A DNA stretch of 64,000 nt from contig OZ241989.1 in NCBI GenBank assembly GCA_965204495.1, positions 544,312-608,311 on the forward strand. Direction: 5' to 3'. The DNA is from Candidatus Hopanoidivoransaceae bacterium. Its GTDB lineage: Bacteria > Actinomycetota > Acidimicrobiia > Acidimicrobiales > Hopanoidiivorantaceae. Position 1 is the first letter of the stretch. Every line of letters starts with the position of its first letter. Positions 29,452 through 46,509 of this stretch are shown here, piece after piece. The position numbers and the translations under genes are program-made. A model generated the notes under the pieces. It saw only the letters and a list, made by a program, of their open reading frames with translations. It did not search any database and was not told where the DNA came from.

Positions 29452-29631
29452 GTTGCCTCCATTTCTCTCTGAAGTGCCAAAACTCATCCTTCAGTCACCA
29501 AACAATCGCCGCTTATGCACCATCGCAGGCACACCATCGCAGGCAACCATATAAAGTCGTTCTGGCCTTGATTAGAGGACGGAACAAGCCGACAACGAGG
29601 AAAACCCTCAAGCGCAAAGCGAAACCAGCCA

Positions 29632-29733
29632 CCCCGACAAACCCCAGCCCCCTCTTGCCCCCAGCCCCCGCAGTCACCCCACTCTCACCCCCCTACCCCT
29701 ATCGCCACAGTCCCCTGTCAAACCCCCAGCCCC
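29632..29733 (-). other. G-run tract (11 runs of G4-G6 on the minus strand), potential G-quadruplex/i-motif DNA
   Basis: The plus strand has C-runs of at least 4 nt at 29632, 29642, 29648, 29658, 29665, 29677, 29688, 29696, 29712, 29723 and 29730. They are separated by 1-12 nt. The tract lies ~150 nt upstream of comM at the left island border. Confidence 0.6.
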
Positions 29734-29897
29734 TCAGCAGTTTGAGCTTACCCTATAGGTGTTGTTTTTTTCAATTCAACTTTCTTGCACCACTATACAC
29801 AGGGGGTGTGACAAGCATGCAGGAGCCCTGCCTGCCGTTTGAAGTTCCCTGTTTGATGAGCACGAGGCACACAGGCACACTGCTAGAATAGAGATAT

Positions 29898-30272
29898 ATG
29901 GCAAAAGACGCAAACAGCCTGCAGACAGACCTGTGCGGTCAGCTAAAAGACCGCATTGAACCTGAACTCAGCCGCATCAGTTCATTTCAGCACGCCCTAC
30001 TGATAGGAGAGCACATATCAGATGCCAACAAAACTGATGATGAAATCTGCCAACAGACTTTCAGGCGGCTGAGTCTGCTGCTAGTGCACGATGGCACACT
30101 CACCTACAGCCAACTGCAAAGAACATTCTCAGACGCCCTTGATGTCACCGACGAGATGAACATGACTGGCGACATCGTGTTTTACTCTGAAGAGGAAATG
30201 CACGATGCCGGCGGTTTGGAAGAATTCCTGCAACGAGAAGACTGCAAAGAGCTTGCTTCGGCTACGGCATAA
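29898..30272 (+). CDS. Hypothetical small acidic protein
   Basis: It is a 124-aa ORF with codon usage like the host. No motif is recognised. Confidence 0.35.
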   Translation: MAKDANSLQTDLCGQLKDRIEPELSRISSFQHALLIGEHISDANKTDDEICQQTFRRLSLLLVHDGTLTYSQLQRTFSDALDVTDEMNMTGDIVFYSEEEMHDAGGLEEFLQREDCKELASATA

Positions 30273-30313
30273 CAGCTGACGGCAACCAGCGAAGCGCGGC
30301 GTGGGTTTCGCGT

Positions 30314-30763
30314 TTGGAAGAAGTCCTAGAAGACATTCTCTTCCTCCAGAACACCGCACGCAAGAGGCTGCTCTGCCAGCAGTGCGCTTTATTGCACGAG
30401 ATCGCAGGAAAGTTCCTGCTGTCCTTGGGAGACCAAGAGGATTCTGCGATCAGAGGGCAGAATCACAATATCGGCGACATCTACCATGCAGCAGAGCGCA
30501 TCCTTCCTCAACACGCCAGCAGACTAGAAGCCATTGTGCCTAGCACCAAATTCTTCCGCAGATTCCGCCAAGCGTCATACCGATACACAGACTATGATCA
30601 CACCGCCATCTACGGGGAATACGACAGACCTCTGCCGCCCACAGAAGACTTAGAGCAACAAATACTAGACGAGCACATAAACCACGCGCTCAGAACATAC
30701 AAGGAAATCCGAGAGATCGCTCGCGAGCATGGCATAAGACTAAAAGATGCTCTTGGCGGTTGA
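30314..30763 (+). CDS. Hypothetical protein
   Basis: It is a 149-aa ORF, 41 nt after the previous ORF and convergent with the Fic gene. No motif is recognised. Confidence 0.35.
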   Translation: MEEVLEDILFLQNTARKRLLCQQCALLHEIAGKFLLSLGDQEDSAIRGQNHNIGDIYHAAERILPQHASRLEAIVPSTKFFRRFRQASYRYTDYDHTAIYGEYDRPLPPTEDLEQQILDEHINHALRTYKEIREIAREHGIRLKDALGG

Positions 30764-30817
30764 TAAGATATTCTCCTCGCATTTCCTTACATTTAATCGG
30801 TCAAGGCTGAACATGGA

Positions 30818-31882
30818 CTACTTGAGCCTGGGCTGGAAATCTAGGTCTGGCCAGCGTTTGTAGCGGCTTGCTATGTAGTCGTCTACCCATTCTTTGGTGC
30901 TTAGCCATTGGCCTTCTGGAGTTTTGAGGGCGCGCAGTCTGCCTCTTTTGGCGGCTACTCGCAGAGCGTTGAATTTGATGTCTTTTCTTCTGAGCGAAGC
31001 TAGCGGGATCAGCTCGTCCTCGTCTGTGATGGCGGGGATGACGAATCTGTAGAGATTGTCCAGCACAGCTCTGGCTAGCAGCTCTCCCAGACTGCCGAAA
31101 TCGCCTTCGTCGGCCAGTCGCAAGGCTCGCAGATACCTGTCTCTGTTGCGGTTCAAAATGAGCGCAGGGGGATATCCCAGTCTCACCAGCACGAGATTCA
31201 GCAGAAGCCTGCCCGCACGACCGTTGCCGTCTGGGAAAGGATGTATCTGCTCAAACCTGCAGTGAATGCGAGCCAAGTCTTCTGGCAAATCAGGCGAAAG
31301 AGCTTGCAGGGCATTCACCTGCTTTAGCCAAGTGTCCATCTCGGCGTGAATGAGCGGCCAAGACACAGGGGTCATGCCCTCCAAGAATGTGGCAATATCA
31401 TGCTCGCGAAAACTTCCAGCAGCTTCTCTGCCCGACACCATTTTGTGCGGACGCTCCTCCCACACACGCGCCATCGCCAAGCGATGCACTTGGCGAACTT
31501 CTGTCATTGACACCAGTGCTTTGGTGATGTCGCCGCTGTCGGGATTGGTGCGTGCTTGATGATACACCCAGTCGGCAGCCTCGGCATAGCCCGTGACTTC
31601 CAAATACATCCAAAGAGGCTGCTCGCCCTTTGTCTTTCCTGTCCGCAGCAACTCCTCCACCATGCTCAAAGCCAAGGTGTTGCCCTCAATGGCTGTGGAG
31701 TTGTGAACCTCTAGATACCAGATGCCGTCCCATATCTCAGAAGCCTGCTCGGGGGCCGGAAGTCCGCCCAGACGCTGCCGCATAGCATCCACTTCGCTCG
31801 CCAACCGCTCATAGATGCTGTTGCGGGAAGGTCTGCCTCGCTGAATTTGTGCACTCACAGCAATTATTATTGCACAAAACAA
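30818..31882 (-). CDS. Fic family protein (second copy, class II)
   Basis: [16 protein letters not shown] is the Fic motif. NSTAIEGN fits the inhibitory (S/T)xxxE(G/N) motif. The N-terminal MFCAIIIAV may lie upstream of the true start. Confidence 0.85.
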
Positions 31883-32145
31883 ATTTGATTTCTCAGAAAT
31901 TGCTCAAATCAGCGTGCTCAGATTGGTAAATAGGGCTTATTCTTGGGAACTACATACAAAACTTGCGAAATCTGCTGAGTTCCCATTCAGGGCAAGGGCT
32001 CTAGCGGTTTTGCTGAGGCCTGGCTGTGCTGGGCCAGGTGGGGAGGAAATGTCCGCTGCGTGGATTGCGGCAGCGAGAAAACCGAAGCGAGCGACAGTCG
32101 TGCGGCTACCCGCATCGCCGCTGAATGGCTGCGCCTCCGCCGCAA

Positions 32146-32207
32146 GGAGCGGTATAGACTAGAAGCCGGCCAGCACCACTCCGCAACTCTGCACTCTAGG
32201 AAAGCCC
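32146..32207 (+). repeat. Copy A of a repeated noncoding motif (37-nt core at 32171-32207)
   Basis: The core cagcaccactccgcaactctgcactctaggaaagccc matches 33284-33320 at 32/37 positions. Weaker similarity extends upstream (gagcgg..tagact..agccg). Confidence 0.6.
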
Positions 32208-32375
32208 TACCGTTCGCTGGCGGAGAACACCCACTCACCGAAACTGACAGATGGCATGCGACTACAGGGATTCGCGTGGCTGCGTACCGTGGCTCCAACG
32301 AAACATCCTACCCCGTCGCTGTCTGCTGGGTGAAATGAGGCTGAATTGTGACCTGACGGCATCTGACCCAAAATG

Positions 32376-32405
32376 TTGACATCAGCCTCAAGATGCTGTT
32401 ATACT
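32376..32405 (+). promoter_or_regulatory. Near-consensus sigma-A-type promoter (TTGACA-N18-TATACT)
   Basis: TTGACA is at 32376-32381 and TATACT at 32400-32405. The promoter lies ~90 nt upstream of the 32498 ORF. Confidence 0.5.
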
Positions 32406-32497
32406 TGCAGTCCATGACGATACAACCAACAGCCTGTGAACTGAAGAGCCGTTACGTCACGCGGCATCACTATCGCAAGACCTGCTAGACTTATTTC

Positions 32498-32857
32498 ATG
32501 GCAACCTTACTAGCGCAAACCGTCTCATCGGGAGAATGGGATGACGGATGGTGGATACTCATCGCAGGAGTATCCCTCGCAGTGATAGGCTGGTTGCTAC
32601 GGGTGATGTACAACGGGCTGAAAGAGACCATCCTCCAAACCAAGGAAGACTTGGAGAACCGCTGTAAGACTATAGAAACCAGCCTCTCTGAGTTGCGGAG
32701 CACGCTTTTTAAAGATGCTCTTGAACGCGCGAGACAGCAACCACAGTCACCCACGGGGACACATTCTGGTGACTCCCCTACGCCGACACCAGCAGCCTCG
32801 CAGGAGATCCCAGCAGGTGTGGGGTTCGCTACCGCATCAACGAAGAGAGATGAGTGA
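32498..32857 (+). CDS. Hypothetical single-pass membrane protein with a coiled-coil segment
   Basis: The TM is WWILIAGVSLAVIGWLL. It is followed by a heptad-like KETILQTKEDLENRCKTIETSLSELRSTLFKDALE and a Pro/Thr-rich tail. A promoter lies upstream. Confidence 0.45.
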   Translation: MATLLAQTVSSGEWDDGWWILIAGVSLAVIGWLLRVMYNGLKETILQTKEDLENRCKTIETSLSELRSTLFKDALERARQQPQSPTGTHSGDSPTPTPAASQEIPAGVGFATASTKRDE

Positions 32858-33283
32858 TTTCTGCCTGAAATCTCACCACCGCTAATGTTGGCTGTTCCAC
32901 CGGGCAAAGGACATTGACCGAATGAAAAGGCCGATGTGCCTATTAGCAGAGCAACACACCACCACTTCCCTGCCCAGAGCTACCAGGGCGAAGAGAAACC
33001 AAGAGGTCACCGTTGAGTATGTCCTCCTCACGCACAGATCGACACAAGCGACCTAGAACTCCTCGAGCACTACAAGCAGATATTCACTGTGGAGTCCAAA
33101 AAATCCGCCTTCTGACACCCAATCTCTGAAGCTTCAGCGAACATCGGCTGTTTCGACTGGCAACTCGGATGTGCCGCAGCCGAACAGCTCCGACAACGAG
33201 CGGCTGCCATGCTCTCTAGACTCTGGTCTTAGCCGCAAAGCCGCAGACGAGCCGCCAGGTGCGGCGCAGACCAGATACCGCGC

Positions 33284-33320
33284 CAGCATCACCCCGCAAC
33301 TCTACCCTCTAGGAAACCCC
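33284..33320 (+). repeat. Copy B of the repeated noncoding motif
   Basis: cagcatcaccccgcaactctaccctctaggaaacccc ends 140 nt upstream of the lipoprotein ATG at 33460. Confidence 0.6.
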
Positions 33321-33446
33321 TGTGAAATCAAGGTTTTTCATCGCTAAACCGCTGTCGGCGGCAGGAAATTGGGTTTGTCGTCAAATGGATGTGCGGGTTG
33401 TGCTATGGTTATATTCAGAATTTTTTACCGGCCTCCAAAAACAGCA

Positions 33447-33452
33447 TATAAT
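33447..33452 (+). promoter_or_regulatory. TATAAT box 7 nt upstream of the ATG, candidate leaderless transcript
   Basis: The sequence reads agcaTATAATatatactATG. The spacing would place the transcription start at or next to the start codon, which is common in Actinomycetota. Confidence 0.35.
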
Positions 33453-33459
33453 ATATACT

Positions 33460-35340
33460 ATGAAAACAAAATTTTACATAGCGATAGCGTTATCAGCTGT
33501 TTTGCTGGCAGCGTCGTGCTCTTCGGGCAGCGACAGCGAATCTGGCACATCAACATCCGCACCTGAAACTATTGCGGACACTGCGGCTGCTGTGCCGTCT
33601 GAAACTGTTACAACGACATCTGCGCCATCGGGCAATGTCGAAGAAGAAACTTCGCTAGTTGTGCCGTTCACAGCAGCCAACGGTTCTGGCACTGTTGCGG
33701 TTTTTGGTGATGGTTCGCCTTTGGTGGCTTGGTTTGGCGGTCTTCCTGGCGAGGTTTCGCTGGATTTGTTGGATGCGGATGTGGGCGATGCTGCGAGCGT
33801 GGTGGAAGAGCTTGTGAGTTTCTGGTTTTTCCAGGATGATGATAGCGGTGATGTGCCGCCGAGTATTTTCGAGTCTGCTAGCGGCGATATTAGCGATAGT
33901 GTTGGCACACGCTATGTTGTGGAAGCGCAAGGTTTGCCGCCAGCACCTGTGGCTGAGACGACAACTACAACTAGCAGCACAAGCACGACTTCGACTTCTT
34001 CTGTTCCTGAAACATCTGAACCTTCTAGCGCGGCGACATCTTCAACCACAACGACAACCTCATCTACGACAACCACGACAACGACTACTGTTGTTGAATC
34101 TCCTGCGGTTTTACAAGTTCAGGTGTTGAACGGAAGCGGTGTCGCTGGTGCTGCTGGAAGGATTACAGATAAGTTGTCAGAAGCAGGATATGTGGTTTTG
34201 TCGCCAGCGAACGCTCCGCAGAGATATAGTTCTTCGGCGGTGTATTTCGCTGAAGGCTGGCAGGATAAAGCTGAAGAGATACTGCAAGCAGCAGACATAG
34301 AAGAGATAGACGCTCCGACAGCTATGCCGCAGCAGTTCGCTACAGAAGAAGCAGCCGTTATAGTTTTGCTAGGAACAGATACCGCTCCTGCGGTTGCTAG
34401 AGAGCAAGCTGGTTTGCGGCCGAGACAGCGAAACGATGTGCAGCTTCCTCTGCCAGATAGTGTGCCCCGCGACAGGTATGTGCCAGGGTTGGCTGCTGTG
34501 AATATTTACACGCCGCAAACAGACAGCGACGAGTACACTTTCGCCCTGGCTCATACTCTCCAAGGATGGCTGCGATTTTTAGGAAACCATGCTCACAACT
34601 ACATTTTCGGTGTGATTCCAGAAGAACGCGGAACACGCGAGCAGGTGCTTCAAGCTTATGAAACGATAGAAGGTATCCTCTCCGATCTTGGTTTCACTCC
34701 GCAGAATGTGTGCGGAGCGCCAGCAGGTTATAGTTTTACTGATTTGCTGCAACCGACACGAGAGTGGGACGAAAGCTTGAAAACCTACAGTGGTGACGCT
34801 ATTTTCACTACTGATCGGCTGTTGGAGTTGCATGGCGGCGAGCGGATAAACCCTGAAGGCAATCTTGATTTCTATATTCGCCAAGCCGTGCAGACAGCGC
34901 ACGATGCTCTACGGCTTCCTGAGCTTTCGGCTGAGACTGAAGCTATGCAGCTTGTCTTGTGTGGGGCTTTCTTGACTCCTTCTGGCGAAGTGCCAGAAAT
35001 GGCTAACAGTTTATGGTACGCGAATCTCACACCTGGGATACAGCCGCGTGAAAGCCTGCTGTCGCAAGGCACATACCATCTCAAAGAAATATCGCGAAGC
35101 GGGAACATGGCTTATATTCTTGTTTGCCATCCGACGCTTGGATCTAGATATATTGATTTAGCTTGGCGAGACGGAGGGTATCGCGGTGAAGCTGTAGGAA
35201 ACCTATTGAACATAGGCTGTCAAGCTGACTTCGAAGACAGGGGGTATATCGCCGACTATGAACCTGAAGAAACAATCAAGTTCTCTTTCGGTGAGCGTGT
35301 TTTTTCTGTTGGAGACCTGCAAGGTTTTCCTAGAGGTTAA
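33460..35340 (+). CDS. Lipoprotein with poly-Thr linker, LytR_C-type domain and an unassigned ~290-aa C-terminal domain
   Basis: MKTKFYIAIALSAVLLAASC is a lipobox. VLQVQVLNGSGVAGAAGRITDKLSEAGYVVLSPANAPQRYSSSAVYF matches the LytR cell-envelope-related C-terminal domain pattern. The RPRQRNDVQLPLP..PRDRYVPGL motif is shared with 15239..16015. The longest ORF starts at 33322. Confidence 0.7.
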   Translation: MKTKFYIAIALSAVLLAASCSSGSDSESGTSTSAPETIADTAAAVPSETVTTTSAPSGNVEEETSLVVPFTAANGSGTVAVFGDGSPLVAWFGGLPGEVSLDLLDADVGDAASVVEELVSFWFFQDDDSGDVPPSIFESASGDISDSVGTRYVVEAQGLPPAPVAETTTTTSSTSTTSTSSVPETSEPSSAATSSTTTTTSSTTTTTTTTVVESPAVLQVQVLNGSGVAGAAGRITDKLSEAGYVVLSPANAPQRYSSSAVYFAEGWQDKAEEILQAADIEEIDAPTAMPQQFATEEAAVIVLLGTDTAPAVAREQAGLRPRQRNDVQLPLPDSVPRDRYVPGLAAVNIYTPQTDSDEYTFALAHTLQGWLRFLGNHAHNYIFGVIPEERGTREQVLQAYETIEGILSDLGFTPQNVCGAPAGYSFTDLLQPTREWDESLKTYSGDAIFTTDRLLELHGGERINPEGNLDFYIRQAVQTAHDALRLPELSAETEAMQLVLCGAFLTPSGEVPEMANSLWYANLTPGIQPRESLLSQGTYHLKEISRSGNMAYILVCHPTLGSRYIDLAWRDGGYRGEAVGNLLNIGCQADFEDRGYIADYEPEETIKFSFGERVFSVGDLQGFPRG

Positions 35341-35405
35341 AAAATTGGCGAAGAAATAGCCGTTTTGTAAATTGGGGCTGTTGGCGACATTAAACTAGCT
35401 AGGTT

Positions 35406-38400
35406 ATGGGGAAACCTTGCTTTTCTAAGCTAACTAAATTTTTCGCGTTTGCTTTGCTCGGCGTAGCGACAGCTATAGCAGCTGTCGTTGTGCTGTCATC
35501 GCCAGTCGCGGCAGACAGCCATACTCGCGGCGGCGGGGGTGGTTTCGATGATTATCCGTGGGATACGGATAATTTGCGCTATGGGAGCTATAACGCTAAG
35601 AGTTTCAATATCCCTTTCCATAAATATGGCGGCTATAGCGGTGTGGCTGCTTGTCAGTCGGGTGTGGCTGACGGGTTTTTCCAGACCGATAACAGCGTGG
35701 TTAACGATTTCCCGGTGCTCGTTTCGTCTGGTAGCGGGGACAGCATTACATGGAGCATAGCTGCGGGTTCGGCGGGCAATAACGCGGGCTGTGATACTTT
35801 TGTCGCCCAGCAGGACAAACTAGCAGCGCAGGTAGCTTCAGGTTTGACCTATGGTTTGTCTGAAGACGGCAAAGTTTATCCAGTCAGCGGGATTGAGTTC
35901 ACTACTGGGAGGTCTGTTTCGGATTTGAACTATGTTGCTTGGACTGCTAAAGCGTCTTCAGATTACACTATTGTGGGAAGCCACGGCGCGACTAGGGATA
36001 GCCGCTATCTGAGGCGAGTGGACGGACACTTGAATCGTTTGGCGATATCACCTCAGTCTGCAGGCAATACCATAACGGTGCCTTCGGGTGATTCTATTTC
36101 TCCGCCAACAGGAGATTTCGGGGCTTCATGGCACAGCAGCCGATCAAACCAATTGGTTGGCGGGGTTTACTACTACCGTTATAAAGCGGCTCTGTATCCT
36201 AGTCTGGCTCGGCATTTGACGAAAACCAAATCAGACGAATTGTGCCGCTACAGATTTCATCCCAGAGGGGAGGACTCTCACGAGAGGATAGGCCGCAGCA
36301 CCGGTAGGTCTCTCTCAAGTCTCAGCCACGCAGACGCTCAGATAGCGGACAGGTTCTGGTGTCGTTCGGATGTGCGCTATGAGCGCAGGTTCGCAGTAGA
36401 AGTTCACGATCTGCCCGACGGTATCATCGCATATGCTGGCGCGCCTGCTTCTGGCACATTCACCGCCTACGGCAGGCTGGGCTGCTATTACACATCCCAA
36501 GGGGCATCGCTAAGATCGGGATCAACGCTATCCCAATGCGGTTACAGGTTTCCTCTGCCGCAGTGTGATCCGAATCCTGGCAACGGCTCTGACAGCGATT
36601 GGCGGAATTACACCAACAGAGAAATACAATCCTCTGGGTTACACGGAAAGGTGTTCACCAAAGCAGACGGAGACTACTGCGCGCCTCAATGCACGCACAA
36701 CGGCAGCAAACGCGACATGACCAACGCGGAGATCAGTGAATACACAAAAGACGATCCGTTCTTCGCGCCGAACACTGACGGCACAACCCCATGCGTCAAA
36801 TCAGACGGCCCGCCGCAGCAGGCTGGTTTCACAGCAGACCCTTGCGTCACAGCAAGTCTGGTGATAGACGAGAACAGGATAGCCGGCAGCGCAGCAGAAC
36901 CTGGCGTGCCAGCTTCGGACAGGACGCTAGTCGCGGCTGCTGACAGAACAGCTTGGGATCTGGATATAACCTCTCCGCATCACAACACGGCAAGCCCGCC
37001 GAGGAATGTAGCAAGCACGCCAGCAGATGCGACTGGCTGCGCTGACGGCTCAGAGAGCAGAGCAGACCACAGCAGCGATGCTGGTTCTGCTGTTCGCAAA
37101 AACACAGCCGCAGGTGCTGACTTGGTTTTGCCTGTTTCTTCTGCCGCTGCCCAGAGCACGCATCCGCCGCACAGCAAAGGCTTCGACTCTGCCGGCACAG
37201 ACTACACAGGCGCGGTCAAAAATATCGCTCATCGCTATGCGAGTAATGTGGCGGAGAATACTTGTGCTGCTAAGCTGGCTGAGGCTGAGATGGTGCTTTC
37301 TGAGATGAAAGCTCGGCGTTTAGCTTTTCAGAGGTATATTGACAGCTATCAAAGCCGCATCGATGCTGCTCTATCAACCTCCGCCACAGCACCTTTGAGT
37401 TTCGGCAATTACTCGACGAACACGCAGCCCGGCTCGGATCTTGGGGTGGATGTTCTGCGCTACAACGCTATAGAAGCTAACCATTCGGCTTATGTGAACG
37501 CACGCAAAGACCATCTTGAGTTTTTAGAAACAGCAGTCGATAAAGCAGAAACCCAATACGGGACAGACACTAGCGGGCTGTCTGTGCCATCGGCGGTTCC
37601 GAATAACGGCTGTGTCGCCAGATACGACAGCGCAATAACCGCTCTTCGTGACAAGATAGACGACGCTGAAACCGATTTCGCTACCGTGGCTAGAACCGCA
37701 GGCAGGAAAAGCGTGTCTGGGCATCTCTCAGATTTCAAGGGTGTGAAATTAGCAAAGAATCCTGACGCAGCGAGAGTTGTTGTGCCGACTGTATCCAGAC
37801 CTGCTTATACATGGAATAACGGCAGCAGTTCTACAGCGTATTCATGTCCTAGCGGCGGAAGACTGAACAGCAACAAAAGCAAATGCACACCGTCAATATC
37901 ACAATCGCAAGCCGCTGCTGCCAGCACTAGTACGGTGACGACAACAGATCAAGAGTGTCTGGATAACCCGCCGGACGACCCTGAAAATCTATGGTTCTTA
38001 GCCTGCTATGGAACCGAGACTGTGACGACTTACAGTTGTCCGTCTCCAGCAGTACCAGCATGGACTCTAAGCGGAAGTTCTTGTTCCAGAATGGTTGACG
38101 GCACTCCTTACACATCTACTGTGACAGTCACTACTTCGCAGTCCTATTCTGTTACCGAAACAGGAACCGTGAAAGGCTATTTCCCGCCCGCAAATTCTTC
38201 GCCAGACAAATCTCAGACATTCACAGTGACTTTCACAGGAACGAGAACCAAAACCGTAGTCAACAGCGGAACGCCGACATATTCAAACAGAACCGACAGC
38301 AACAACTACGCAACCAAATCCAAAGAAGCCGAAAATATCGTCAAAGGATCGCCGCCGACAAGCCAATCCGCTCTGCCGGGTTTCGCCGAGCCGTCAATAA

Positions 38401-40616
38401 CGGCACACACCGACATATCGAACCTGTCGCTGCTAGGCAAATACCATCCGCAGCACACCGACAGAACCAACCTGAAAGCCGCATCCGCTTCCGACCGTAA
38501 CACAGCCGCCGCAAACCTAGGGTCGCTGTCGGCTGGCAACATCACCACAGCAGCAACCGGGGCGATAACGACACCGCAGAACATAGCCAACACAAATGTT
38601 CCGACAAGCTGGGGCGGAACCGGCACCACAGCCGCCAGCAGACGCTCAGACCTGCAAACAGAAACCAACGACTACAAAACCGCCTACACCAGAGCGTATA
38701 ACACCGCTTACAGAGCAGCTCTGTCGGACATGGGAACCACAGCCACAACAACCACATGGAACAACTTCGACTGGCGATACCAACAATCCACACTGGCATG
38801 GGGCAACTACCAAGAAGACCCAGCCACAACATACTCCGCTTCCACAGCCACGCCAAGAGACGGCACAGGCTGCGACCTTGTATCTGTTGCTTCTGACGGC
38901 ACGGTTTCTGTGGAAGCCACACGGCTGGACTACGAAACATCCAGCTACGGCAAAAGCTCCGTCTACAGCACACGAACAGACGCTCAGCGCACATGCAAAA
39001 TACGCAGAACACGCACACCAGAACTGATACTCAAATACCAGCCGTCTCGCCCATCAGGAACAGACACATCCAAAGCAGCGAGTTCCTTCTATGTCAACTA
39101 CCAGCCCCCAGTCGCCGCCGGACAACCTGCATCGGAGCGGTTCAAGCTCTACGACGAAGCAGAAGTATTCGCAGTCAAAACATCTCTAGCCGACAGCCCG
39201 CCAGTGCTGTGCTACCAGCCAGGCGAAGCACTAGTAGCGCATGTCGCAGCCAAAGGCATAGACGCTGTAAACAAAGCGGTATTCAGACACGCATCAGGAT
39301 TCGCAGGCGGCAACAAGAAGCACTGCTACAGGCATCCTTCATTGGCGCAGCTGGTGTCTAACGGAAAATCGCAGCCGGCGTTTGTGTTCTTTGACGACAC
39401 AGCACACTCGGCTATGGCTTCGGTGAATGTCGTGTGGCAGCAGCCGACACCGAAGATAGTGTCCAAGCTAGGATCGGCAGACGATCTGAAAATGATGGCG
39501 AACACCGTCGCTCTTGTCGCTAGCTCTCCTGTGGCTTATGCGGATGCGACACGAACTTCCAGCTTCTACGGCACCTACTACACATTCCCCACAGACAACA
39601 GCGTGAAGTCTCCTAGCGGATGGGACATCACAGGACACCCCAGCTTGACGCTCGCATCAACATTCGAACAGCATCAAGTGCAAGCCAAAGACACAGCCGC
39701 CAAAACACCGACAACACACACGATGGTGTTCAAATTCATAGACTGCGTGTTCGGAATAGAAGATGTCGCATTCGTAGACAACATCGCAAGCCCCTACGCG
39801 CTGCTGTCTGATGAGAACGGAGTAGTGCCGTCTGGATGGAAGCAAACCTATGACAGAGACCCGCACAACAGCCCCACATGGTACTATCCTGCGTTCTCCA
39901 CCTATGAAGGCGCGCTGCGGCTGGACGGCAGACGAGACAGCAACGGCGACCCTATAACCTACGGGCGCAACACCCAGGGCGGATTCGCTCATCCGTCATA
40001 TGCTTTGGAGAACACCGCATCAGACGGAATAGGCTGGGGCGTCGTCTATGAAGACAAAGTAGGCAAACAACAGCCAGTCTGGGCGATACACGCACCGCCA
40101 GTGCCAGGCGACAACACATTGACAGCTATAGAGGTTTGTGGAGTGAATAATCTAGGTGCAGGCGGCAGGAATCCGATGCCAACAGCAACCAGACGAATCG
40201 GCACCCCAGCGACACCGCCGCCAGCTTCTGGGGTGTGGTCATGGAAAGCGTCAGGCTGGGATTATCACGATAATCCTGTCATGCTGTGGAGCGTAGATGA
40301 CGACCCTGACAGAGAAGACAAATGGGAGACAAGAACATCAGACTCTTCTGCGAAACTGCCGCGCAAACCTCACTGCAATATGGATTACGCCACAGAAGAA
40401 TCCAATGTCGCCGAACTGGATGTGTTCACAGACCCTGACAATGCCGCTCCAGCAGGTCAATCGCGATTAGAAGACCAAGACATGGTGCTTGCTAACTTCC
40501 AGCCTCTAGCAGTCAGCAAATCCGCCAGAGCCCAACTGAGTGGTTATTCACTTCTGGCGCGATCCCAGTCTTTCGTCGTGCCCGCGCGCCCTTCTTCTTC
40601 TACCTTGACGCCCTAG
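35406..40616 (+). CDS. Giant (1,736 aa) secreted or cell-surface protein with no recognisable domain
   Basis: It is an uninterrupted 5.2-kb ORF. The N-terminal signal/anchor is FFAFALLGVATAIAAVVVLSSPVAAD. I count about 28 Cys, several of them in close pairs. One coiled-coil-like stretch is present. I could see no internal tandem repeats and no sortase signal. Confidence 0.75.
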   Translation: MGKPCFSKLTKFFAFALLGVATAIAAVVVLSSPVAADSHTRGGGGGFDDYPWDTDNLRYGSYNAKSFNIPFHKYGGYSGVAACQSGVADGFFQTDNSVVNDFPVLVSSGSGDSITWSIAAGSAGNNAGCDTFVAQQDKLAAQVASGLTYGLSEDGKVYPVSGIEFTTGRSVSDLNYVAWTAKASSDYTIVGSHGATRDSRYLRRVDGHLNRLAISPQSAGNTITVPSGDSISPPTGDFGASWHSSRSNQLVGGVYYYRYKAALYPSLARHLTKTKSDELCRYRFHPRGEDSHERIGRSTGRSLSSLSHADAQIADRFWCRSDVRYERRFAVEVHDLPDGIIAYAGAPASGTFTAYGRLGCYYTSQGASLRSGSTLSQCGYRFPLPQCDPNPGNGSDSDWRNYTNREIQSSGLHGKVFTKADGDYCAPQCTHNGSKRDMTNAEISEYTKDDPFFAPNTDGTTPCVKSDGPPQQAGFTADPCVTASLVIDENRIAGSAAEPGVPASDRTLVAAADRTAWDLDITSPHHNTASPPRNVASTPADATGCADGSESRADHSSDAGSAVRKNTAAGADLVLPVSSAAAQSTHPPHSKGFDSAGTDYTGAVKNIAHRYASNVAENTCAAKLAEAEMVLSEMKARRLAFQRYIDSYQSRIDAALSTSATAPLSFGNYSTNTQPGSDLGVDVLRYNAIEANHSAYVNARKDHLEFLETAVDKAETQYGTDTSGLSVPSAVPNNGCVARYDSAITALRDKIDDAETDFATVARTAGRKSVSGHLSDFKGVKLAKNPDAARVVVPTVSRPAYTWNNGSSSTAYSCPSGGRLNSNKSKCTPSISQSQAAAASTSTVTTTDQECLDNPPDDPENLWFLACYGTETVTTYSCPSPAVPAWTLSGSSCSRMVDGTPYTSTVTVTTSQSYSVTETGTVKGYFPPANSSPDKSQTFTVTFTGTRTKTVVNSGTPTYSNRTDSNNYATKSKEAENIVKGSPPTSQSALPGFAEPSITAHTDISNLSLLGKYHPQHTDRTNLKAASASDRNTAAANLGSLSAGNITTAATGAITTPQNIANTNVPTSWGGTGTTAASRRSDLQTETNDYKTAYTRAYNTAYRAALSDMGTTATTTTWNNFDWRYQQSTLAWGNYQEDPATTYSASTATPRDGTGCDLVSVASDGTVSVEATRLDYETSSYGKSSVYSTRTDAQRTCKIRRTRTPELILKYQPSRPSGTDTSKAASSFYVNYQPPVAAGQPASERFKLYDEAEVFAVKTSLADSPPVLCYQPGEALVAHVAAKGIDAVNKAVFRHASGFAGGNKKHCYRHPSLAQLVSNGKSQPAFVFFDDTAHSAMASVNVVWQQPTPKIVSKLGSADDLKMMANTVALVASSPVAYADATRTSSFYGTYYTFPTDNSVKSPSGWDITGHPSLTLASTFEQHQVQAKDTAAKTPTTHTMVFKFIDCVFGIEDVAFVDNIASPYALLSDENGVVPSGWKQTYDRDPHNSPTWYYPAFSTYEGALRLDGRRDSNGDPITYGRNTQGGFAHPSYALENTASDGIGWGVVYEDKVGKQQPVWAIHAPPVPGDNTLTAIEVCGVNNLGAGGRNPMPTATRRIGTPATPPPASGVWSWKASGWDYHDNPVMLWSVDDDPDREDKWETRTSDSSAKLPRKPHCNMDYATEESNVAELDVFTDPDNAAPAGQSRLEDQDMVLANFQPLAVSKSARAQLSGYSLLARSQSFVVPARPSSSTLTP

Positions 40617-41345
40617 ACCAAGATATGACCATCACCGAATTCTTAGAAGAGTTCGATGGAACAACCAAGGAGCACATAGACACTTTTTGGGAACTCTCAC
40701 TGGCTAGCACACAAACCTAGCCAGCAATGAGCGAGAGACTGACCGGGGCCGTGTCTCCGCCCGCTCCTACCACCGCGCTGTCTCCTCCCCACCCAACTGG
40801 AAAAGATACCCAAGAATGGTTGCCTCGTTTGCAACAACTGCTGCTATAGTGAATTCACATGAGGGCAGCATCAGCCACTTTCAATCGTGAGACAGGCCAA
40901 TTCGCCCACGTAGTGGATGGGAACAGCACTTTTGCGATGTCTCAAAGAGCAGCGAGGTCTATGCAAACCAGCTCAGGCCATAAGCGCGGCGCGGCTGATA
41001 TTTCTGATAGGATTGTCGGCATGTTGAAGCTAGACAAGATAACGGCTCTTCACGAGCCGCCGACCAACCGACGCCGCCTCTTCCACCTGCCCCTGAGGAT
41101 GCCGAGCCTCAAGGCCAGTACACTGGCTGCTTGGACCTCATCCGCAGTGGCGATGATCCAAAGGGAGGCATACCCACAGCACCAGTTGACGGTTGAGCTT
41201 GATAAGCCCTTTAGCCAGAGAGCAAACCCGTCCAACCCCTGATCCAGCCGTAGTCCCTTCCACTGAAGGAGGAGCAGAAGAAATTCCTCTGAGCAACAAC
41301 ATATCCAATTATTATAACAACCACACAAAAAGGAGATAAACCCAA

Positions 41346-41993
41346 ATGAGTGCAAACATATGGATAGACACACACCACAACAACCTACATGCTTCGAACA
41401 AGCTTCTCTCCGAAGTCTTAGAAGAGAGAAGGGAGGATGCCCAAAAGAGCGTTTTGGCAATTCCTGAAAAGGATTTCCTAAAGCAAAATAATAGTGAGAT
41501 TGAAAAACCTCTCACTTGTCAGTTCACCATAGGTCTAGTAACTTTTGAAGACCCAAAAATAAAGAGACCTGAACCAGAAGGTGGAAATTATGTGATCCAT
41601 CAAACAATCCCCTTCAAAGGCGACCCGGTTTTACTTGAGTACTCGCCGTTTGCAACTGGCCCCATACCGCCAATTGCTTCTACTAAGAAGCAGACTCCCG
41701 CTAGAGGACCAATTGGCAAAATAATAAAATTAAAAAACAGCAGTAACTGCAGAGAAATTGAGGTGAAGCTGGTATTCAAAGGCGATATCATGAATGAAGA
41801 GAACACTCCTCAAAATATAAAAAAAATACTCAAAAACAACTATATAGAAATTATGGAATGGACTGATTCTGCTAACCAGGATGCCGCACAATTCAACAAA
41901 CACTTACCATATTACATTTCAGTATCTATTCAAGACAGGAGGAATAGCTTGCAGATGATCGAAAATGTTTGTAAGCAGATCCAAGACAAGTAG
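41346..41993 (+). CDS. Hypothetical protein on an AT-rich segment
   Basis: It is a 215-aa ORF preceded by AAAAGGAGATAAACCCAA-ATG. It is Lys/Asn/Ile-rich, and the AT-rich composition begins at ~41280. No motif is recognised. Confidence 0.5.
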   Translation: MSANIWIDTHHNNLHASNKLLSEVLEERREDAQKSVLAIPEKDFLKQNNSEIEKPLTCQFTIGLVTFEDPKIKRPEPEGGNYVIHQTIPFKGDPVLLEYSPFATGPIPPIASTKKQTPARGPIGKIIKLKNSSNCREIEVKLVFKGDIMNEENTPQNIKKILKNNYIEIMEWTDSANQDAAQFNKHLPYYISVSIQDRRNSLQMIENVCKQIQDK

Positions 41994-42022
41994 AAAAAAA
42001 TTGATCCAACAAGTTCAGCGAT

Positions 42023-42770
42023 CTAAAGGTAATAATATAATAAACTTATCCGTGAGTTGATATCTTTGGGGTGGATAGGTGGGCGTTCCGGGGTGTTTGC
42101 TAGGTTGTTCTTCGCTGTGGAGAGAGCGGTTTTAGGGGTTTGGCATGGACGGATGTTGTGCTTTTCGGCGAACTCGTTGACATAGCGGGCTAGGTGTTTG
42201 CTGCTGAGGTGATGGTGGGTGCTGTGCATGCTTCTTGTGAGCAAAGGACAGAAGGATTCCACGCTGTTGATGTGGGCGTGGCCTCTCACATATTGCCCCC
42301 GGCGTTGGGTAACTTGTTGAGTGATCGTATTCGAAGTCCGCGTCAAAGCTGGCGTAGACTCTGTTGTCGTCTGTTATAGCCCCACGAGCCTTCAGCCACG
42401 CTGCCGACCACGAAACCCTGCAAGTTGGCCTTGTCCGAGCGGCTCAAGGACTCAGCTATCACACCGCCTCCCCGCAGCAATGCTCCAGCAACAGCCGTCT
42501 TGCCCGCGGTTCTCCTGCAAGCCCGGCTTGTAAGACTCAATCACAGCGCCTTTCTTCACCTTGAAAAATCCACGACAGCCACGGCATCTGAACTTCATCT
42601 GCCTATGGCGAAACAACCCCCATATTGCCGCTGCCGCAATCAGGGCACCCGATATCGCCCTTCCATCTTACCCAGCACAGCCAATCTTCGGCGTGACAAT
42701 CATCGGGAAAAGCTCCAGTAACTCCAAAATACTAACATCCTCTCGCCTCTTCAGAGTCACCATCGTCCAT
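42023..42770 (-). mobile_element. IS1595-family (ISXO2-like) transposase pseudogene
   Basis: The pieces lie in three frames on the minus strand. The first is FPDDCHAEDWLCWVRWKGDIGCPDCGS (Zn-ribbon) followed by a TAG. The second is KFRCRGCRGFFKVKKGAVIES. The third is GKTAVAGALLRGGGVIAESL..LQGFVVGSVAEGS. The fourth is HINSVESF...HHHLSSKHLARYVNEFAEKHNIR (C-terminal DDE region). In-frame stops occur at 42732-42734 and after VVSP, and there are at least 2 frameshifts. Confidence 0.75.
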
Positions 42771-42915
42771 TTCGGTGTTCGGTTGTTCACCTGCTTCATG
42801 TCGCTGTAAGTCGTCCAGAGCGATACATGGATTCCTCTATCTGGAAGAAGGTAATAGCTTATTGGCGGACTAGGCGGTTGCGAAGATATTGCTGGCGGGT
42901 CGATGTCTCAAATGC

Positions 42916-43080
42916 TTAATTCAGGTCGGCAACGACTGCCTCGACTGTATCTAAGACTTGCTGGAGCGAGGTATCCAAGACGACAGGTGGATCGGGTGGC
43001 AAGTGGTTGGGCACGAAGGCTCGAACGCTTTCGCCTGCGATTCGGATTGTCTCGTAGCGGCCGATTTCGCCACGCTTCAT
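42916..43080 (-). pseudogene. Fic-family N-terminal fragment (54 codons)
   Basis: The minus-strand translation is MKRGEIGRYETIRIAGESVRAFVPNHLPPDPPVVLDTSLQQVLDTVEAVVADLN*. It matches the Fic_N pattern G.Y......GGe.vrAFvP.pLPP.ppl. No Fic core follows in any frame. Confidence 0.6.
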
Positions 43081-43230
43081 GGCTGCTCCTTGGTGTGGGA
43101 GTTATTTTCAGACAAGGTTTGAAGCCTTGCTAGGCCAGTCAGCTGGCTAGAGTGTGCTATCGCACTGAACAATGGGAGCACTTCTGCCCGAACCCTCACT
43201 CCCTTGTAAGTCTTCAGGCTATTTAATTAT

Positions 43231-43248
43231 ATGCCAGAGTTCTGGCAT
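43231..43248 (-). terminator. Hairpin just downstream of the GmrSD-like stop
   Basis: atgccaga-gt-tctggcat has perfect 8-bp arms and lies 24 nt after the stop at 43272. The flanks are A/T-rich, but there is no clean U-run. Confidence 0.25.
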
Positions 43249-43271
43249 TATATCCACATTGAACTAAATAT

Positions 43272-45128
43272 TCAATCACTCTTCAGATTGTCTGGACTCC
43301 ATATTTTCTCAGCAACTCTAAGGTAAAGATCTTGACGCTGATCAAGTTCTGATTTTTCAAATTTAGAATAAGCCTTCAAGTTAAGTCCAGTGGAACGAAT
43401 AAAGTCTTTGAATGCAGGATTATTTGAATAAGTACTGTGATGGAGACTAGAAGCTAATAATTCATTCTTTTGATAATGCTCAACCTTTTCATTATATGGC
43501 TTGTCAGAGTAACTTGCGTTGCTCTTTTTTGGCAATAAAAGAAGTCCGCCTATGCGATTACGATATTCAAAAAACTCATGCTCAGTATTAAAATCTTTTT
43601 TGTGACCATGCTCAATGTACTTGTTTGCCCAGATATGCTCTATCTCATAGGGGTTTTCTTTGCGCTCAGTATACTCAACATAGCGTGGCTCGCTGCCATC
43701 TGACATTTGTATATAATCTGTAATCCTAGCTAAAATTCGGTGAATTTTTTTTCTATTCTGTTTGTTTAATTGCAAAGAATTATTTGAATTAAACTGCTCA
43801 CTTTCTTGCTTGAGTTCGTTAGTGAAAAACTCTATTAGTTCATTATAGCTCATGTTTCTTATTGGCAAAATTATTGATTTATACATATTATGCTTCATTG
43901 TAGCATAGTCAATTGCTCTGTTATTCCAAATTCTTCTAGCTAATACAATATCCAAATAAATAGATGTAACTTTGATTTTATTAAAAATATCATCTTCAGT
44001 ATCCTTTTGAATATTATCGTGATTCAATGGTGCTAATATTACAGGGTATTGCAAAGAAAAGTTATTTTGTGCGTTATAATACACGTTAGGAAAGTCATTG
44101 GAGAAATTTTTTGCTTTATCTATCAAAAACATATACCACTTTGTATAAAATTTAAAATTCTCTGAAATAAAATTAAAATAGCTCTGACTGTTTTTGTCAA
44201 TAAGTCCGAGTTTATTAGCGTTATCTTTTACCCATCGATGACTCTGAGAGGCAATTAATTCAAAATCTTGATCCTCAGAGTCTCGTTTTCTTTCCCTCAC
44301 TGTAGTGGCATACTGGCTGCGTAACCATGCTTTAATGGCATCAGAGTCTTCTTCCTTTCCAATATTTCGCAACTCATTGACACGTTCTCTCCATATTTCG
44401 TTTGCTTTATTTCTTGATTCTTGTTCAGTTATATTGGTTAGAAGATATCCTTTTAGCATGTCTGTTGATGTAAGAGACAAACCTCTATCATTCATAGTTT
44501 CAAATATTGTATAGGCATCGCTATCAGACGAAGTATCTATGATAATCACATCAACATTATAAATCAACCAAGCTGAAAAATGCTCAATTGCATTATCAGT
44601 AATTTCATTTGGGAAGTTATCAACAATATCTTGATAACGTGACATTATGTTCTGTATTGACTCATTTTCTTGTGACGTATCAAAATTGCTAGTTTCATTA
44701 AAAAGTGCTTCCATACATTGTTCACGTTCGTCAACATCCAAGACAAACGCCTGTCGTGGCGGGATATACTTAGAAATTAATGATTCGACATGTGAAGATT
44801 CATAATTTTTTTCCTTCAATTGATGCATAATGTATATTAGAAGAAGAGTCAAAGTTGTTAATCTTTGTTGACCATCAACTATATAGTACTTGCCATCTAC
44901 AGATGAAATAATTATGGATCCAAAAAAATATCCTTCGTATTCTGATCTAACACTTTCTAGATCATTATTTTGATCATGGCTGTTTAAAAACCTATCGCCA
45001 AGATCAGTCAGCATGTCAACAACCTGCTTTGTTCCCCACCTATATTCGCGCTGATAGTAATCTATATTGAATCTTTGCCCATCCAATACTTCTTGAAGGC
45101 ACTTTGATTCTGCTTGAATTGTTTTCAT
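43272..45128 (-). CDS. GmrSD-like type IV restriction endonuclease (DUF262 + DUF1524)
   Basis: The N-terminal YQREYRWGTKQV and DGQQRLTTLTLLLIY are the DUF262/ParB-like DGQQR motif. The C-terminal YEIEHIWA...IGGLLLLPKKSNAS is a DUF1524 His-Me finger pattern. By eye the gene is about 30-35% GC, against a much GC-richer flank. Confidence 0.8.
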   Translation of the reverse strand: MKTIQAESKCLQEVLDGQRFNIDYYQREYRWGTKQVVDMLTDLGDRFLNSHDQNNDLESVRSEYEGYFFGSIIISSVDGKYYIVDGQQRLTTLTLLLIYIMHQLKEKNYESSHVESLISKYIPPRQAFVLDVDEREQCMEALFNETSNFDTSQENESIQNIMSRYQDIVDNFPNEITDNAIEHFSAWLIYNVDVIIIDTSSDSDAYTIFETMNDRGLSLTSTDMLKGYLLTNITEQESRNKANEIWRERVNELRNIGKEEDSDAIKAWLRSQYATTVRERKRDSEDQDFELIASQSHRWVKDNANKLGLIDKNSQSYFNFISENFKFYTKWYMFLIDKAKNFSNDFPNVYYNAQNNFSLQYPVILAPLNHDNIQKDTEDDIFNKIKVTSIYLDIVLARRIWNNRAIDYATMKHNMYKSIILPIRNMSYNELIEFFTNELKQESEQFNSNNSLQLNKQNRKKIHRILARITDYIQMSDGSEPRYVEYTERKENPYEIEHIWANKYIEHGHKKDFNTEHEFFEYRNRIGGLLLLPKKSNASYSDKPYNEKVEHYQKNELLASSLHHSTYSNNPAFKDFIRSTGLNLKAYSKFEKSELDQRQDLYLRVAEKIWSPDNLKSD

Positions 45129-45148
45129 GGTATTCTCCTTTTAATCTG

Positions 45149-45856
45149 CTAATTCCGGCACTTTACCATAATATCCCGAAAAAGCGCGTTTGCGCAATTT
45201 TTATTCATACTGCTCCCACAACCCCAAGATCCTAGCCCCGTCCTCTCTGTCTCCTTCTCTATAACTAGAATGTCTCCTCGGTTTTCTTCTAAAGGGCGTA
45301 TGGTGGTCGGGTTGCAGAAGTAGCGGGCAAAGCTGATCTCGTAGCCGACTTTGACGCTTTCATGGACATACCAGGCATCGGGGGCGTAGGGTAGGACTTC
45401 TCGGCGGGTGGAGACTTCTATGCCGCCTCCTTCTAGGAGGGAGACTTGCTCGGTGCCGCGGAGGGTGGGGAGCGGAGCTTCGTGAATTTTCTTGATGAGA
45501 TGTAGACTCATACTCCTACTATATCAGCATCTTGGCAAAATGTGTGGTTTTTTTGTGAATTTTTTGATGAGCACGGCAAGCCCTAGATGAGGGATCTGTC
45601 TTTGATAACAGCGTGTTTGCCTCGACACCCCCCTGCTCCATGTATTGTCTGGTGCCAGCGGTGGATGTTGCTCTCGCCTTGGCCCTCGTCGCCGGTGAAG
45701 AGGGAACTGCCGTTGTGGTCTTCTGCGAGGGTGAGCATTCCACCTGTGCCGCAAGCGCCGTCGTAGATGAGATATGCCTCTGTCGTCTAGGATTCGCTTT
45801 TGCGCCATGACATCTTCTTTGGTGGCTTCCAGCACGGCGTCTAGGCAGCGGAGCAT
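45149..45856 (-). pseudogene. hsdM: Type I R-M methyltransferase (HsdM) remnant, frameshifted and internally deleted
   Basis: LRCLDAVLEATKEDVMAQKRILD is the HsdM N-domain. IYDGACGTGGML is SAM motif I and lies in a second frame. KVGYEISFARYFCNPTTIRPLEE is the HsdM C-terminal tail, in 45149..45511. The total is under 240 codons, against ~500 for intact HsdM. I saw no NPPF motif. Confidence 0.7.
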
Positions 45857-46356
45857 GTCATCGGCAGGATCGGATCTTTGTCTGGGGCTTCTAAGTCAAT
45901 GGGAGCATTGAGAGCAATCAGGCCATCATGGTCGGTGGCGAGGCAGTGCGAAAACGCTTCAACGCTTCCGCAGAGGTTGTTTTCATCCATGCCATGGAAG
46001 TGGGCGATGAGGAAATCTAGCAGAGCTTGCTCGCCCTCGGTTAGGACATTGCTGTCGAGGGCGGCACTTGGCGAGGGCTCTACTACAGAGGCTTCGGAGA
46101 CTGTTATGTCTCCTGCGCAGACGAGGCTGTCTATGGCTTCGCAAAAAGCTTCGGGGACTATGCCTTCAGCCTCGGTGAAGCGATAGGAATCGCCGGTGAC
46201 GGACACCCCGTGCCTGTGGCAATGGTAGTTGTCAAGAGCGAACAGGGCATAGCGCAGTTGAGTCAGGCTGAAGCTGGGCGAAGCCGAAGCAGCGAATGCC
46301 AGAACAGCCTGCCTGTATTTCGTCAGGCTGATGGTCGGCGATGCTGTCAGTGCCAT
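45841..46356 (-). CDS. Hypothetical protein, weak resemblance to the Panacea/SocA (DUF4065) antitoxin domain
   Basis: SLTQLRYALFALDNYHCHRHGVSVTGDSYRFTEAEGIVPEAF and LTEGEQALLDFLIAHFHGMDENNL loosely follow the DUF4065 pattern (kLqKLlY....g.pl....f.a...GPv ; l...e..lld.v...yg..s...L). The assignment is not secure. Confidence 0.3.
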   Translation of the reverse strand: MALTASPTISLTKYRQAVLAFAASASPSFSLTQLRYALFALDNYHCHRHGVSVTGDSYRFTEAEGIVPEAFCEAIDSLVCAGDITVSEASVVEPSPSAALDSNVLTEGEQALLDFLIAHFHGMDENNLCGSVEAFSHCLATDHDGLIALNAPIDLEAPDKDPILPMTCSAA

Positions 46357-46424
46357 GTTCAGGATTATATCAGGCTTGCTGCACAGTGACTTCCGAGTTG
46401 GATAGCTCGCCCTCTAGTGCTCTA

Positions 46425-46490
46425 AATCTATGCAGCCGCCAGAAACCCAGCCACAACACACACGATGGTGTTCAAATTCGTAGACAACTA
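46425..46490 (+). pseudogene. Relic of a diverged homolog of the giant-protein gene
   Basis: 46431-46487 translates in frame as YAAARNPATTHTMVFKFVDN*. The giant ORF at ~39682-39741 reads DTAAKTP-TTHTMVFKFIDC. The 29-nt stretch acaacacacacgatggtgttcaaattc..tagac is almost identical. The flanks differ by an in-frame 3-nt indel and by conservative changes. Confidence 0.6.
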
Positions 46491-46509
46491 AGTATTGTAT
46501 GCAATTCGC

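Follow-up and report, generated by a model that had tools for sequence, protein, structure and literature searches.

A strain-variable island between comM and ccmH in an uncultured Acidimicrobiales species, very probably exchanged by homologous recombination

The 64-kb window analysed here comes from the single-contig, 2.62-Mb genome (G000) of Candidatus Hopanoidivoransaceae bacterium (contig OZ241989.1, positions 544,312 to 608,311), an uncultured member of the Acidimicrobiales. Between comM and the ccm operon, whose ccmH gene forms the right border, lies an interval of 17,022 bp (29488–46509). A preliminary description prepared from the sequence alone had regarded this interval as a flexible island in which no housekeeping gene could be recognised, and Pfam searches of the interval likewise revealed none. 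Comparison with conspecific strains indicates that it is very probably a strain-variable, replacement-type flexible genomic island of a single species, swapped by homologous recombination. Positions below are those of the window unless given as genome positions.

Gene content and composition of the comM–ccmH interval

The features of the interval and its borders are as follows (position, strand, description; aa, amino acids; ORF, open reading frame; nt, nucleotides).

26676–28013, minus: dprA (Pfam DNA_processg_A, 8.6e-64)
27940–29487, minus: comM, the left anchor, intact, 515 aa (Pfam Mg_chelatase/ChlI, E 8e-82)
29488–29895: spacer upstream of comM, containing a C-rich tract and a GGGTGTGACAnGCAT core and present in conserved form in every conspecific strain
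29898–30272, plus: 124-aa ORF of the conserved left arm (90%-identity cluster of 52 members)
30314–30763, plus: 149-aa ORF (164 aa in relatives), member of the Fic module (gene calls in loci L014, L015 and L047)
30818–31882, minus: Fic/DOC gene, SoFic-like (Pfam Fic, 3.7e-15; PADLOC SoFic, 1.2e-21)
32194–32243, minus: relic A, the last ~17 codons and 3′ flank of a lost lipoprotein gene
32498–32857, plus: 119-aa ORF with one predicted transmembrane helix (from its sequence)
33262–33322, minus: relic B, the last 6 codons and 3′ flank of a second lost lipoprotein gene
33460–35340, plus: LytR_C lipoprotein, 626 aa (Pfam LytR_C, 1.1e-12; lipobox LAASC)
35406–40616, plus: secreted giant protein, 1,736 aa (signal peptide)
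40859–41242, plus: 127-aa ORF (ORF only; family search without match)
41346–41993, plus: AT-rich 215-aa ORF, candidate defence gene fragment (PADLOC PDC-S54, 9e-13, partial)
42137–42754, minus: IS1595-family transposase pseudogene, disrupted by stops and an internal deletion (Pfam DDE_Tnp_IS1595, 1.3e-09)
42835–43244, minus: Fic_N stub relic and upstream DNA (83% nt identity over 413 nt to genome 2519601–2520013)
43272–45128, minus: putative GmrSD-type gene (DUF262 + DUF1524/HNH), type IV restriction-like, 618 aa (Pfam GmrSD_N, 4.3e-34; GmrSD_C, 5e-11)
45245–45856, minus: decayed hsdM, four collinear fragments (aa 49–77, 233–251, 388–412 and 633–709 of 718; tblastn)
45841–46356, minus: 171-aa ORF, core of the conserved right arm (45866–46509)
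46433–46485, plus: giant-gene relic, an internal piece of 53 nt beside ccmH
46510–48282, minus: ccmH-TPR fusion, the right anchor (Pfam, E 2.5e-27), followed by ccmG and ccmF

This inventory largely upholds the preliminary description while correcting several of its details. At the left end, where two orphan ORFs and a Fic gene had been listed, the Fic gene stands, with an intact HxFx(D/E)GNGR motif (HPFPDGNGR at residue 214). The count does not, as three ORFs precede it; the ORF at 29568–29891 is probably no gene. The 124-aa ORF was found in every conspecific and sister-species contig examined, and a family search with the 149-aa ORF returned no match. The spacer at 29488–29895 is probably ancestral, since it aligns loosely to the 337-bp comM–ccmH spacer of G002, the closest species genome (flanks ~80% identical). 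A AGGGGGTGTGACAnGCAT motif within it (29797–29819) recurs at nine other genome sites (e.g. 329913, 1118804, 1836551 and 1858762) and is conserved in the comM-upstream spacer of G002, with similar cores in genomes G001 and G003, and might act as a promoter or operator specific to the lineage. It was rejected as a boundary motif for cassette insertion because its ~10 genome copies do not lie consistently at cassette ends.

In the middle of the interval, the predicted membrane ORF retains its assignment, with a single helix; it has paralogs in G000, and a 77% nt match to it adjoins a lipoprotein gene in G002. The lipoprotein (whose real start is at 33460) and the 1,736-aa secreted giant anticipated beside it are corroborated by lipobox, LytR_C domain and signal peptide, and a Pfam search with the giant gave no domain match. 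Ahead of the lipoprotein gene lie two gene-end relics, A and B. The reverse complement of relic A reads SVSFGEWVFSASER-stop-GFPR, to be compared with the C-terminus of the lipoprotein family, FSFGERVFSVGDLQGFPRG-stop, and relic B corresponds to the 3′ termini of genes or relics of the family situated at genome 1.6977, 1.7047 and 1.7077 Mb. The small piece beside ccmH, previously described as the remnant of a second giant gene, is 85–95% identical in nt to giants at genome 99.8 kb, 1.15 Mb and 1.80 Mb, and to window 39706–39743, which supports that description.

The right part of the interval contains further decayed genes. The IS1595 pseudogene reported earlier was recovered by tblastn with an intact 321-aa copy at genome 150 kb, and its span is now 42137–42754 on the minus strand, so that a plus-strand ORF previously called at 42425–42721 is antisense to the pseudogene. 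The intact copy (genome 149998–150963; L020:2998-3963) adjoins a divergently oriented lipoprotein–giant cassette at 152–161 kb, and the island pseudogene likely derives from the same transposase family. The Fic N-terminal stub is present at a reduced size of only ~22 codons with a stop (42835–42900, minus; tblastn E 0.007). Both GmrSD Pfam domains support the restriction-like assignment of the 618-aa gene, which also carries DGQQR at residue 85 and EIEH at residue 495 (PADLOC HEC-06, 9e-41), the domains and motifs of a putative GmrSD type IV enzyme. The four fragments of the decayed hsdM match an intact 718-aa HsdM encoded at genome 2.52 Mb, in agreement with the earlier reading, and the 215-aa ORF belongs to a cluster with one member only.

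Window 42834–45937 as a whole is a collinear, heavily deleted copy of that 2.52-Mb defence locus, which encodes a Fic_N stub, an RNase_T-like exonuclease, a 378-aa ORF, the 718-aa HsdM, DUF1828, DUF6978 and a 700-aa GmrSD. The cluster there (genome 2516000–2531000; L019) also has an AAA_15 ATPase and an HNH protein. Between flanks shared by the two loci, the AT-rich 618-aa GmrSD gene of the island replaces two genes of the 2.52-Mb locus, and its relatives are ~50% identical and spread over many phyla. The gene is a recent acquisition.

Guanine-plus-cytosine (GC) content averages 50.3% in the island and 56.7% in the genome, and the two AT-rich blocks noticed by eye in the preliminary description measure 38.6% (41280–42020) and 33.0% GC (43201–45150). 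The island is compositionally distinct only locally. In 2-kb windows the island as a whole ranges from the 5th to the 20th genome percentile for GC and from the 65th to the 93rd for tetranucleotide distance, and the sole extreme stretch is 42.7–45.7 kb (the GmrSD gene, 33% GC), where GC falls under the 1st percentile and tetranucleotide distance exceeds the 99th. With only the GmrSD block extreme, composition by itself is weak support for an island.

Island versions in conspecific strains and the same site in other species

Cluster look-ups showed that the flanking genes, and some of the island genes, have many near-identical relatives, and through these a conspecific set of nine contigs was reached, with flanks 94–100% identical to the window. 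Full islands were reconstructed from overlapping loci of the same records, whose overlaps agree exactly. A metagenome scan with comM gave one distant locus only (55% identity), and an exact look-up of comM, ccmH and the 626-aa lipoprotein matched no record. All nine contigs carry 10.7–18.5 kb between comM and ccmH, in six versions (10.7, ~11, 12.3, 15.9, 17.0 and 18.5 kb).

Version A, 17.0 kb: the content of the window (window)
Version B, ~11 kb: from comM to ccmH, the 124-aa and 164-aa ORFs, Fic, lipoprotein, giant, and ORFs of 146 and 166 aa (ERZ25068389, ERZ25068392)
Version C, 12.3 kb: Fic absent, two extra ORFs between lipoprotein and giant (ERZ25070167, ERZ25068325)
Version C2, 10.7 kb: like C minus the two extra ORFs (ERZ25070167)
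Version D, 15.9 kb: methylase-HNH, inverted lipoprotein gene, HsdM_N stub (ERZ26167708, ERZ25068388)
Version E, 18.5 kb: Fic, a 646-aa gene, inverted lipoprotein gene (ERZ25070167)

Four versions occur within assembly ERZ25070167 and two within ERZ26167708. Every version pairs a single LytR_C lipoprotein with a single giant secreted protein, amid defence genes that change; the pair proteins are 57–90% identical or less between versions and occur in either orientation, and an equivalent role of the pair across versions is suggested by family membership. The version B giant is split into ORFs of 445 and 1,048 aa in ERZ25068389 (L015:14405-18955) and intact (1,542 aa) in ERZ25068392, and the split copy may be a pseudogene or a sequencing error.

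All versions retain a left arm (to 30303, plus 31831–32059) and a right arm (from 45866), whose core, the 171-aa ORF, is 96–100% identical across the 7 conspecific contigs covering that part (versions A–E). Fic-less strains lack 30304–31830 and keep the first 17 Fic codons, so that the absence of Fic reflects a deletion. In versions D and E, left and right segments 97% identical surround a replaced middle. Together with the gene-end relics and the foreign GmrSD gene, these patterns show internal exchange, deletion decay and single-gene entry within the island.

An alignment to relatives anchored on comM and ccmH, the check proposed in the preliminary description, likewise showed that content differs and that the gene content of the window is not common to relatives. 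Three other species of the genus have a short gap: 337 bp in G002, ~1.2 kb of unrelated sequence in G003, and ~0.5 kb in G001, with comM adjoining ccmF there; no homologue of the island proteins was found at the sites of these three genomes. In G001 (L003, L004), ccmH and ccmG sit on a separate 6.5-kb contig, the result of either a ccm operon rearrangement or an assembly break.

Two sister lineages occupy intermediate positions. The first (flanks 82–88% identical) has only ORFs of 124 and 85 aa and Fic in 2.9 kb, with Fic abutting ccmH; in the second (flanks 84–93% identical) the interval reaches 7.9 kb through a Type ISP restriction enzyme inserted ahead of Fic. This 1,801-aa enzyme lies between the 164-aa ORF and Fic (L047:10935-16340; L048:3943-9348) and combines Mrr_cat, ResIII, Helicase_C, ISP_coupler, N6_Mtase and Type_ISP_C domains. 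The Fic–ccmH spacer measures 75–83 bp in the sister lineages, and in the window the hypervariable 14.6 kb occupies the same place. The island is therefore layered, with a module of the 124-aa ORF, 164-aa ORF and Fic, older because it is common to the sister lineages, and a younger hypervariable part. The generalisation that every island has a lipoprotein–giant pair holds for the species and fails in these two sister lineages (flanks 82–93% identical). The Fic gene itself (30797–31933) is 91.5–92.6% identical to the sister copies (L045, L047), with flanking core genes at 82–89%, and may have been exchanged between species or be under stronger constraint.

Homologous replacement and the competing explanations

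The preliminary description had favoured turnover by homologous recombination or replacement over a single integrative element, and three strain comparisons bear this out. Over an outer ~7 kb to either side, ERZ26167708 matches the window at 100.0% identity, and the two carry unrelated islands, with divergence starting in dprA (~27,220, near codon 263) and ending at the ccmH start (~48,260). Within this tract, comM shows 41 synonymous and 0 non-synonymous codon differences, dprA 12 synonymous and 6 non-synonymous (codons 67–263 only, the comM-proximal part) and ccmH 24 synonymous and 15 non-synonymous, and ccmG beyond shows 0 differences. The converse arrangement is seen between ERZ26167708 and ERZ25068388, whose flanks are 94–96% identical and in which 16.4 kb, including the whole 15.9-kb island, differ at one position. 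In addition, locus L021 carries window 39955–46500 at 99.9–100% identity beside ccm genes that are only 86–96% identical, and two further sources hold the right part of the window's island at 100%. The same backbone with a different island, divergent backbones with the same island, and a portion of the window's island beside diverged ccm genes together show turnover by homologous recombination. By double crossover in dprA/comM and ccmH, versions are swapped between co-occurring lineages in tracts of about 20 kb, and comM was exchanged together with the island.

These are the traits of replacement flexible genomic islands as defined, together with their double-crossover exchange, for aquatic prokaryotes (López-Pérez, Martin-Cuadrado & Rodriguez-Valera 2014, PMC4033161), a concept applied to 'Ca. 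Actinomarinales' as well (PMC7771536). The comM–ccmH island resembles them in its position at the same locus in all strains, in versions that differ with a predicted equivalent role in exposed structures, in the occurrence of one and the same island in diverged clonal frames and of different islands within a single frame, in the mostly synonymous border peak and in the absence of a mobility gene. It differs in its cargo, a protein pair and defence genes rather than a glycan (O-chain or glycotype) cluster, in its additive layering and many deletion scars, and in that the replacement alleles resemble paralogs at other loci, as the pair family has ~25 genome copies.

Several points weigh against the replacement reading. 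The clonal-frame claim for G000 and ERZ26167708 rests on ~15 kb of flank only, and near its island ERZ26167708 has stretches of ~1.3 kb and ~2.2 kb unlike both comparison genomes, which implies that more than one event, or a third parent, was involved. The strain contigs are metagenome assemblies at 2–14x coverage; comM of ERZ26167708 is split into two ORFs (114 and 365 aa; L011:8068-9580, 6x coverage), which may be a strain frameshift or a long-read error, and window 32,060–38,930 was not found at ~100% identity in any independent contig. Surface exposure and phage selection are deduced from signal peptides and family names only.

Entry of the interval as one integrative element (a genomic island, integrative and conjugative element or prophage remnant), by site-specific recombination with subsequent loss of the integrase, would account for the empty site in G002, for island GC below the genome mean throughout and for mobile-DNA debris such as the IS1595 pseudogene. 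It would be expected to leave other traces, and the searches for them were all negative, in line with the preliminary description: Pfam and family searches found no integrase domain among the island ORFs (xerC, at 25540–26442, is part of the conserved core block and not of the island), ARAGORN and Rfam gave no tRNA and no Rfam match over the whole 64 kb, and no repeat above chance was found at the island ends. Since composition is also heterogeneous (33% GC in one gene versus 50–55% elsewhere), and content is layered across species, with most of it having paralogs in G000, we consider this origin very improbable. A gradual variant, in which the site grew by serial site-specific insertion of cassettes through an enzyme encoded elsewhere, with homologous recombination secondary (the additive type of island, of which tRNA-linked additive islands are an example), fits the nested sizes across species (2.9, 7.9 and 10.7–18.5 kb, new DNA entering a short spacer) and the gene-end relics of lost cassettes. 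Those relics are inverted lipoprotein gene ends, however, rather than att-like repeats; blastn-short searches of the island with the ccmH 3′, comM 5′ and Fic 5′ ends gave self matches only, no boundary repeat common to the island modules was found, and the only exchanges observed directly are homologous replacements running from flank to flank. Serial insertion is thus an unlikely account of the island.

That the variability arose from chimeric joins during metagenome assembly might be suspected from the multi-copy nature of the lipoprotein and giant genes, and from the breaks of L021 and L022 inside the giant (at 39955 and 38932). Yet overlapping loci of the same records agree exactly, several versions lie on contigs of 0.8–2.6 Mb, and independent assemblies yielded the same versions: D came from both ERZ26167708 and ERZ25068388, C from both ERZ25070167 and ERZ25068325, and the right part of A from three sources, one of them a Logan assembly. 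An artefact of this kind is therefore scarcely credible.

Under the replacement reading, every strain of the species in the set has a version at this site, and each version carries a predicted cell-surface pair, the LytR_C lipoprotein and the giant secreted protein, surrounded by a changing set of predicted anti-phage genes (SoFic-like Fic, GmrSD, methylase-HNH and restriction-modification relics). Whole versions are swapped between co-occurring lineages by crossovers in dprA/comM and ccmH; internal segments are also exchanged, deletions leave gene-end relics, and single foreign genes such as GmrSD enter. Phage selection on exposed proteins and defence genes may keep many versions in one population, and uptake of the DNA to be exchanged may proceed through natural transformation.

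Defence islands and hot spots located between conserved core genes provide a second comparison. Like them, the site gathers SoFic-like Fic, GmrSD-type, methylase-HNH and restriction-modification relics, and in a sister species Type ISP, at one strain-variable position; unlike them, its constant component within the species is a surface-protein pair rather than a defence gene, and no mobile element borders it. In Acinetobacter baumannii, the AbaR resistance islands are Tn7-like transposons inserted within comM and equipped with transposition genes of their own. The present island shares with them the adjoining comM, which is intact here (515 aa), and differs in lying upstream of the gene and in having no transposition module. 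The locus is a clear example of an already known kind of island.

The lipoprotein–giant family and its significance

The ~300-aa Cys/His C-terminal domain of the lipoprotein is present in 25 copies in the 2.62-Mb G000, together with at least 10 giants, each beside a copy of the domain (cassette loci at, for example, 93–100, 152–161, 768–775 and 826–832 kb, and 1.143–1.151, 1.795–1.802 and 1.851–1.857 Mb). G002 has three lipoproteins and one giant, and no member of the family was found in G001, G003 or G004. Of 151 genomes from the order, 2 contain the domain, and it was found in only 33 of 1.84 billion representative proteins, which indicates a genus-restricted family with a large species-specific expansion. 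A profile search of the PDB with the lipoprotein recovered the LytR_C domain only (2m5y), and an AlphaFold2 model from a 25-row alignment was poor, with a predicted local distance difference test score (pLDDT) of 51 and a predicted template modelling score (pTM) of 0.27.

The island giant is a mosaic, with segments 82–91% identical to different paralogous giants, and the island alleles of other strains best match other G000 loci; the version D giant, for example, is 87.8% identical in aa to the giant at 157–161 kb, a locus whose pair is likewise divergently oriented. The pair is thus drawn from a common pool of family copies, and relics A and B and the piece at 46433–46485 record earlier tenants of the site. 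An invertible lipoprotein gene, suggested by inverted repeats at 33303–33322 and 35320–35339, was rejected: the upstream arm is left over from the 3′ end of a different gene, and no strain pair has the same allele in both orientations. Elsewhere, genome 1697728–1707779 holds three lipoprotein 3′-end relics within 10 kb, with the 3′ flank seen in relics A and B, and a distant paralog (24% identity) of the 124-aa ORF at 1707201–1707494; this region may be another cassette graveyard.

The mosaic patches of 82–91% identity, the best matches of other strains' island alleles to other loci, and the inverted relics of gene ends suggest a broader and more tentative reading, in which the ~25 cassettes would form a genome-wide pool reshuffling by recombination between loci and strains, a protein-based surface-variation system of this free-living actinobacterium, with the comM–ccmH site among its most actively swapped slots. 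We regard this as possible and rather doubtful, because no G000 paralog pair is more than ~91.5% identical, so that no recent between-locus conversion is seen. If true, it would place the system closer to the antigen-gene families of pathogens than to the glycan islands of aquatic bacteria.

The replacement reading has consequences of its own. The interval found in any one metagenome-assembled genome is not representative of the species, a warning for annotation. For an uncultured actinobacterium, the locus documents the replacement of whole islands with unusual clarity at the sequence level, including several versions that coexist in a single sample. The concept of replacement islands, known from glycan clusters, is thereby extended to a surface module made of proteins and combined with defence genes. 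In addition, a gene family confined to the genus and enormously expanded emerges as a likely target of phage-driven diversification.

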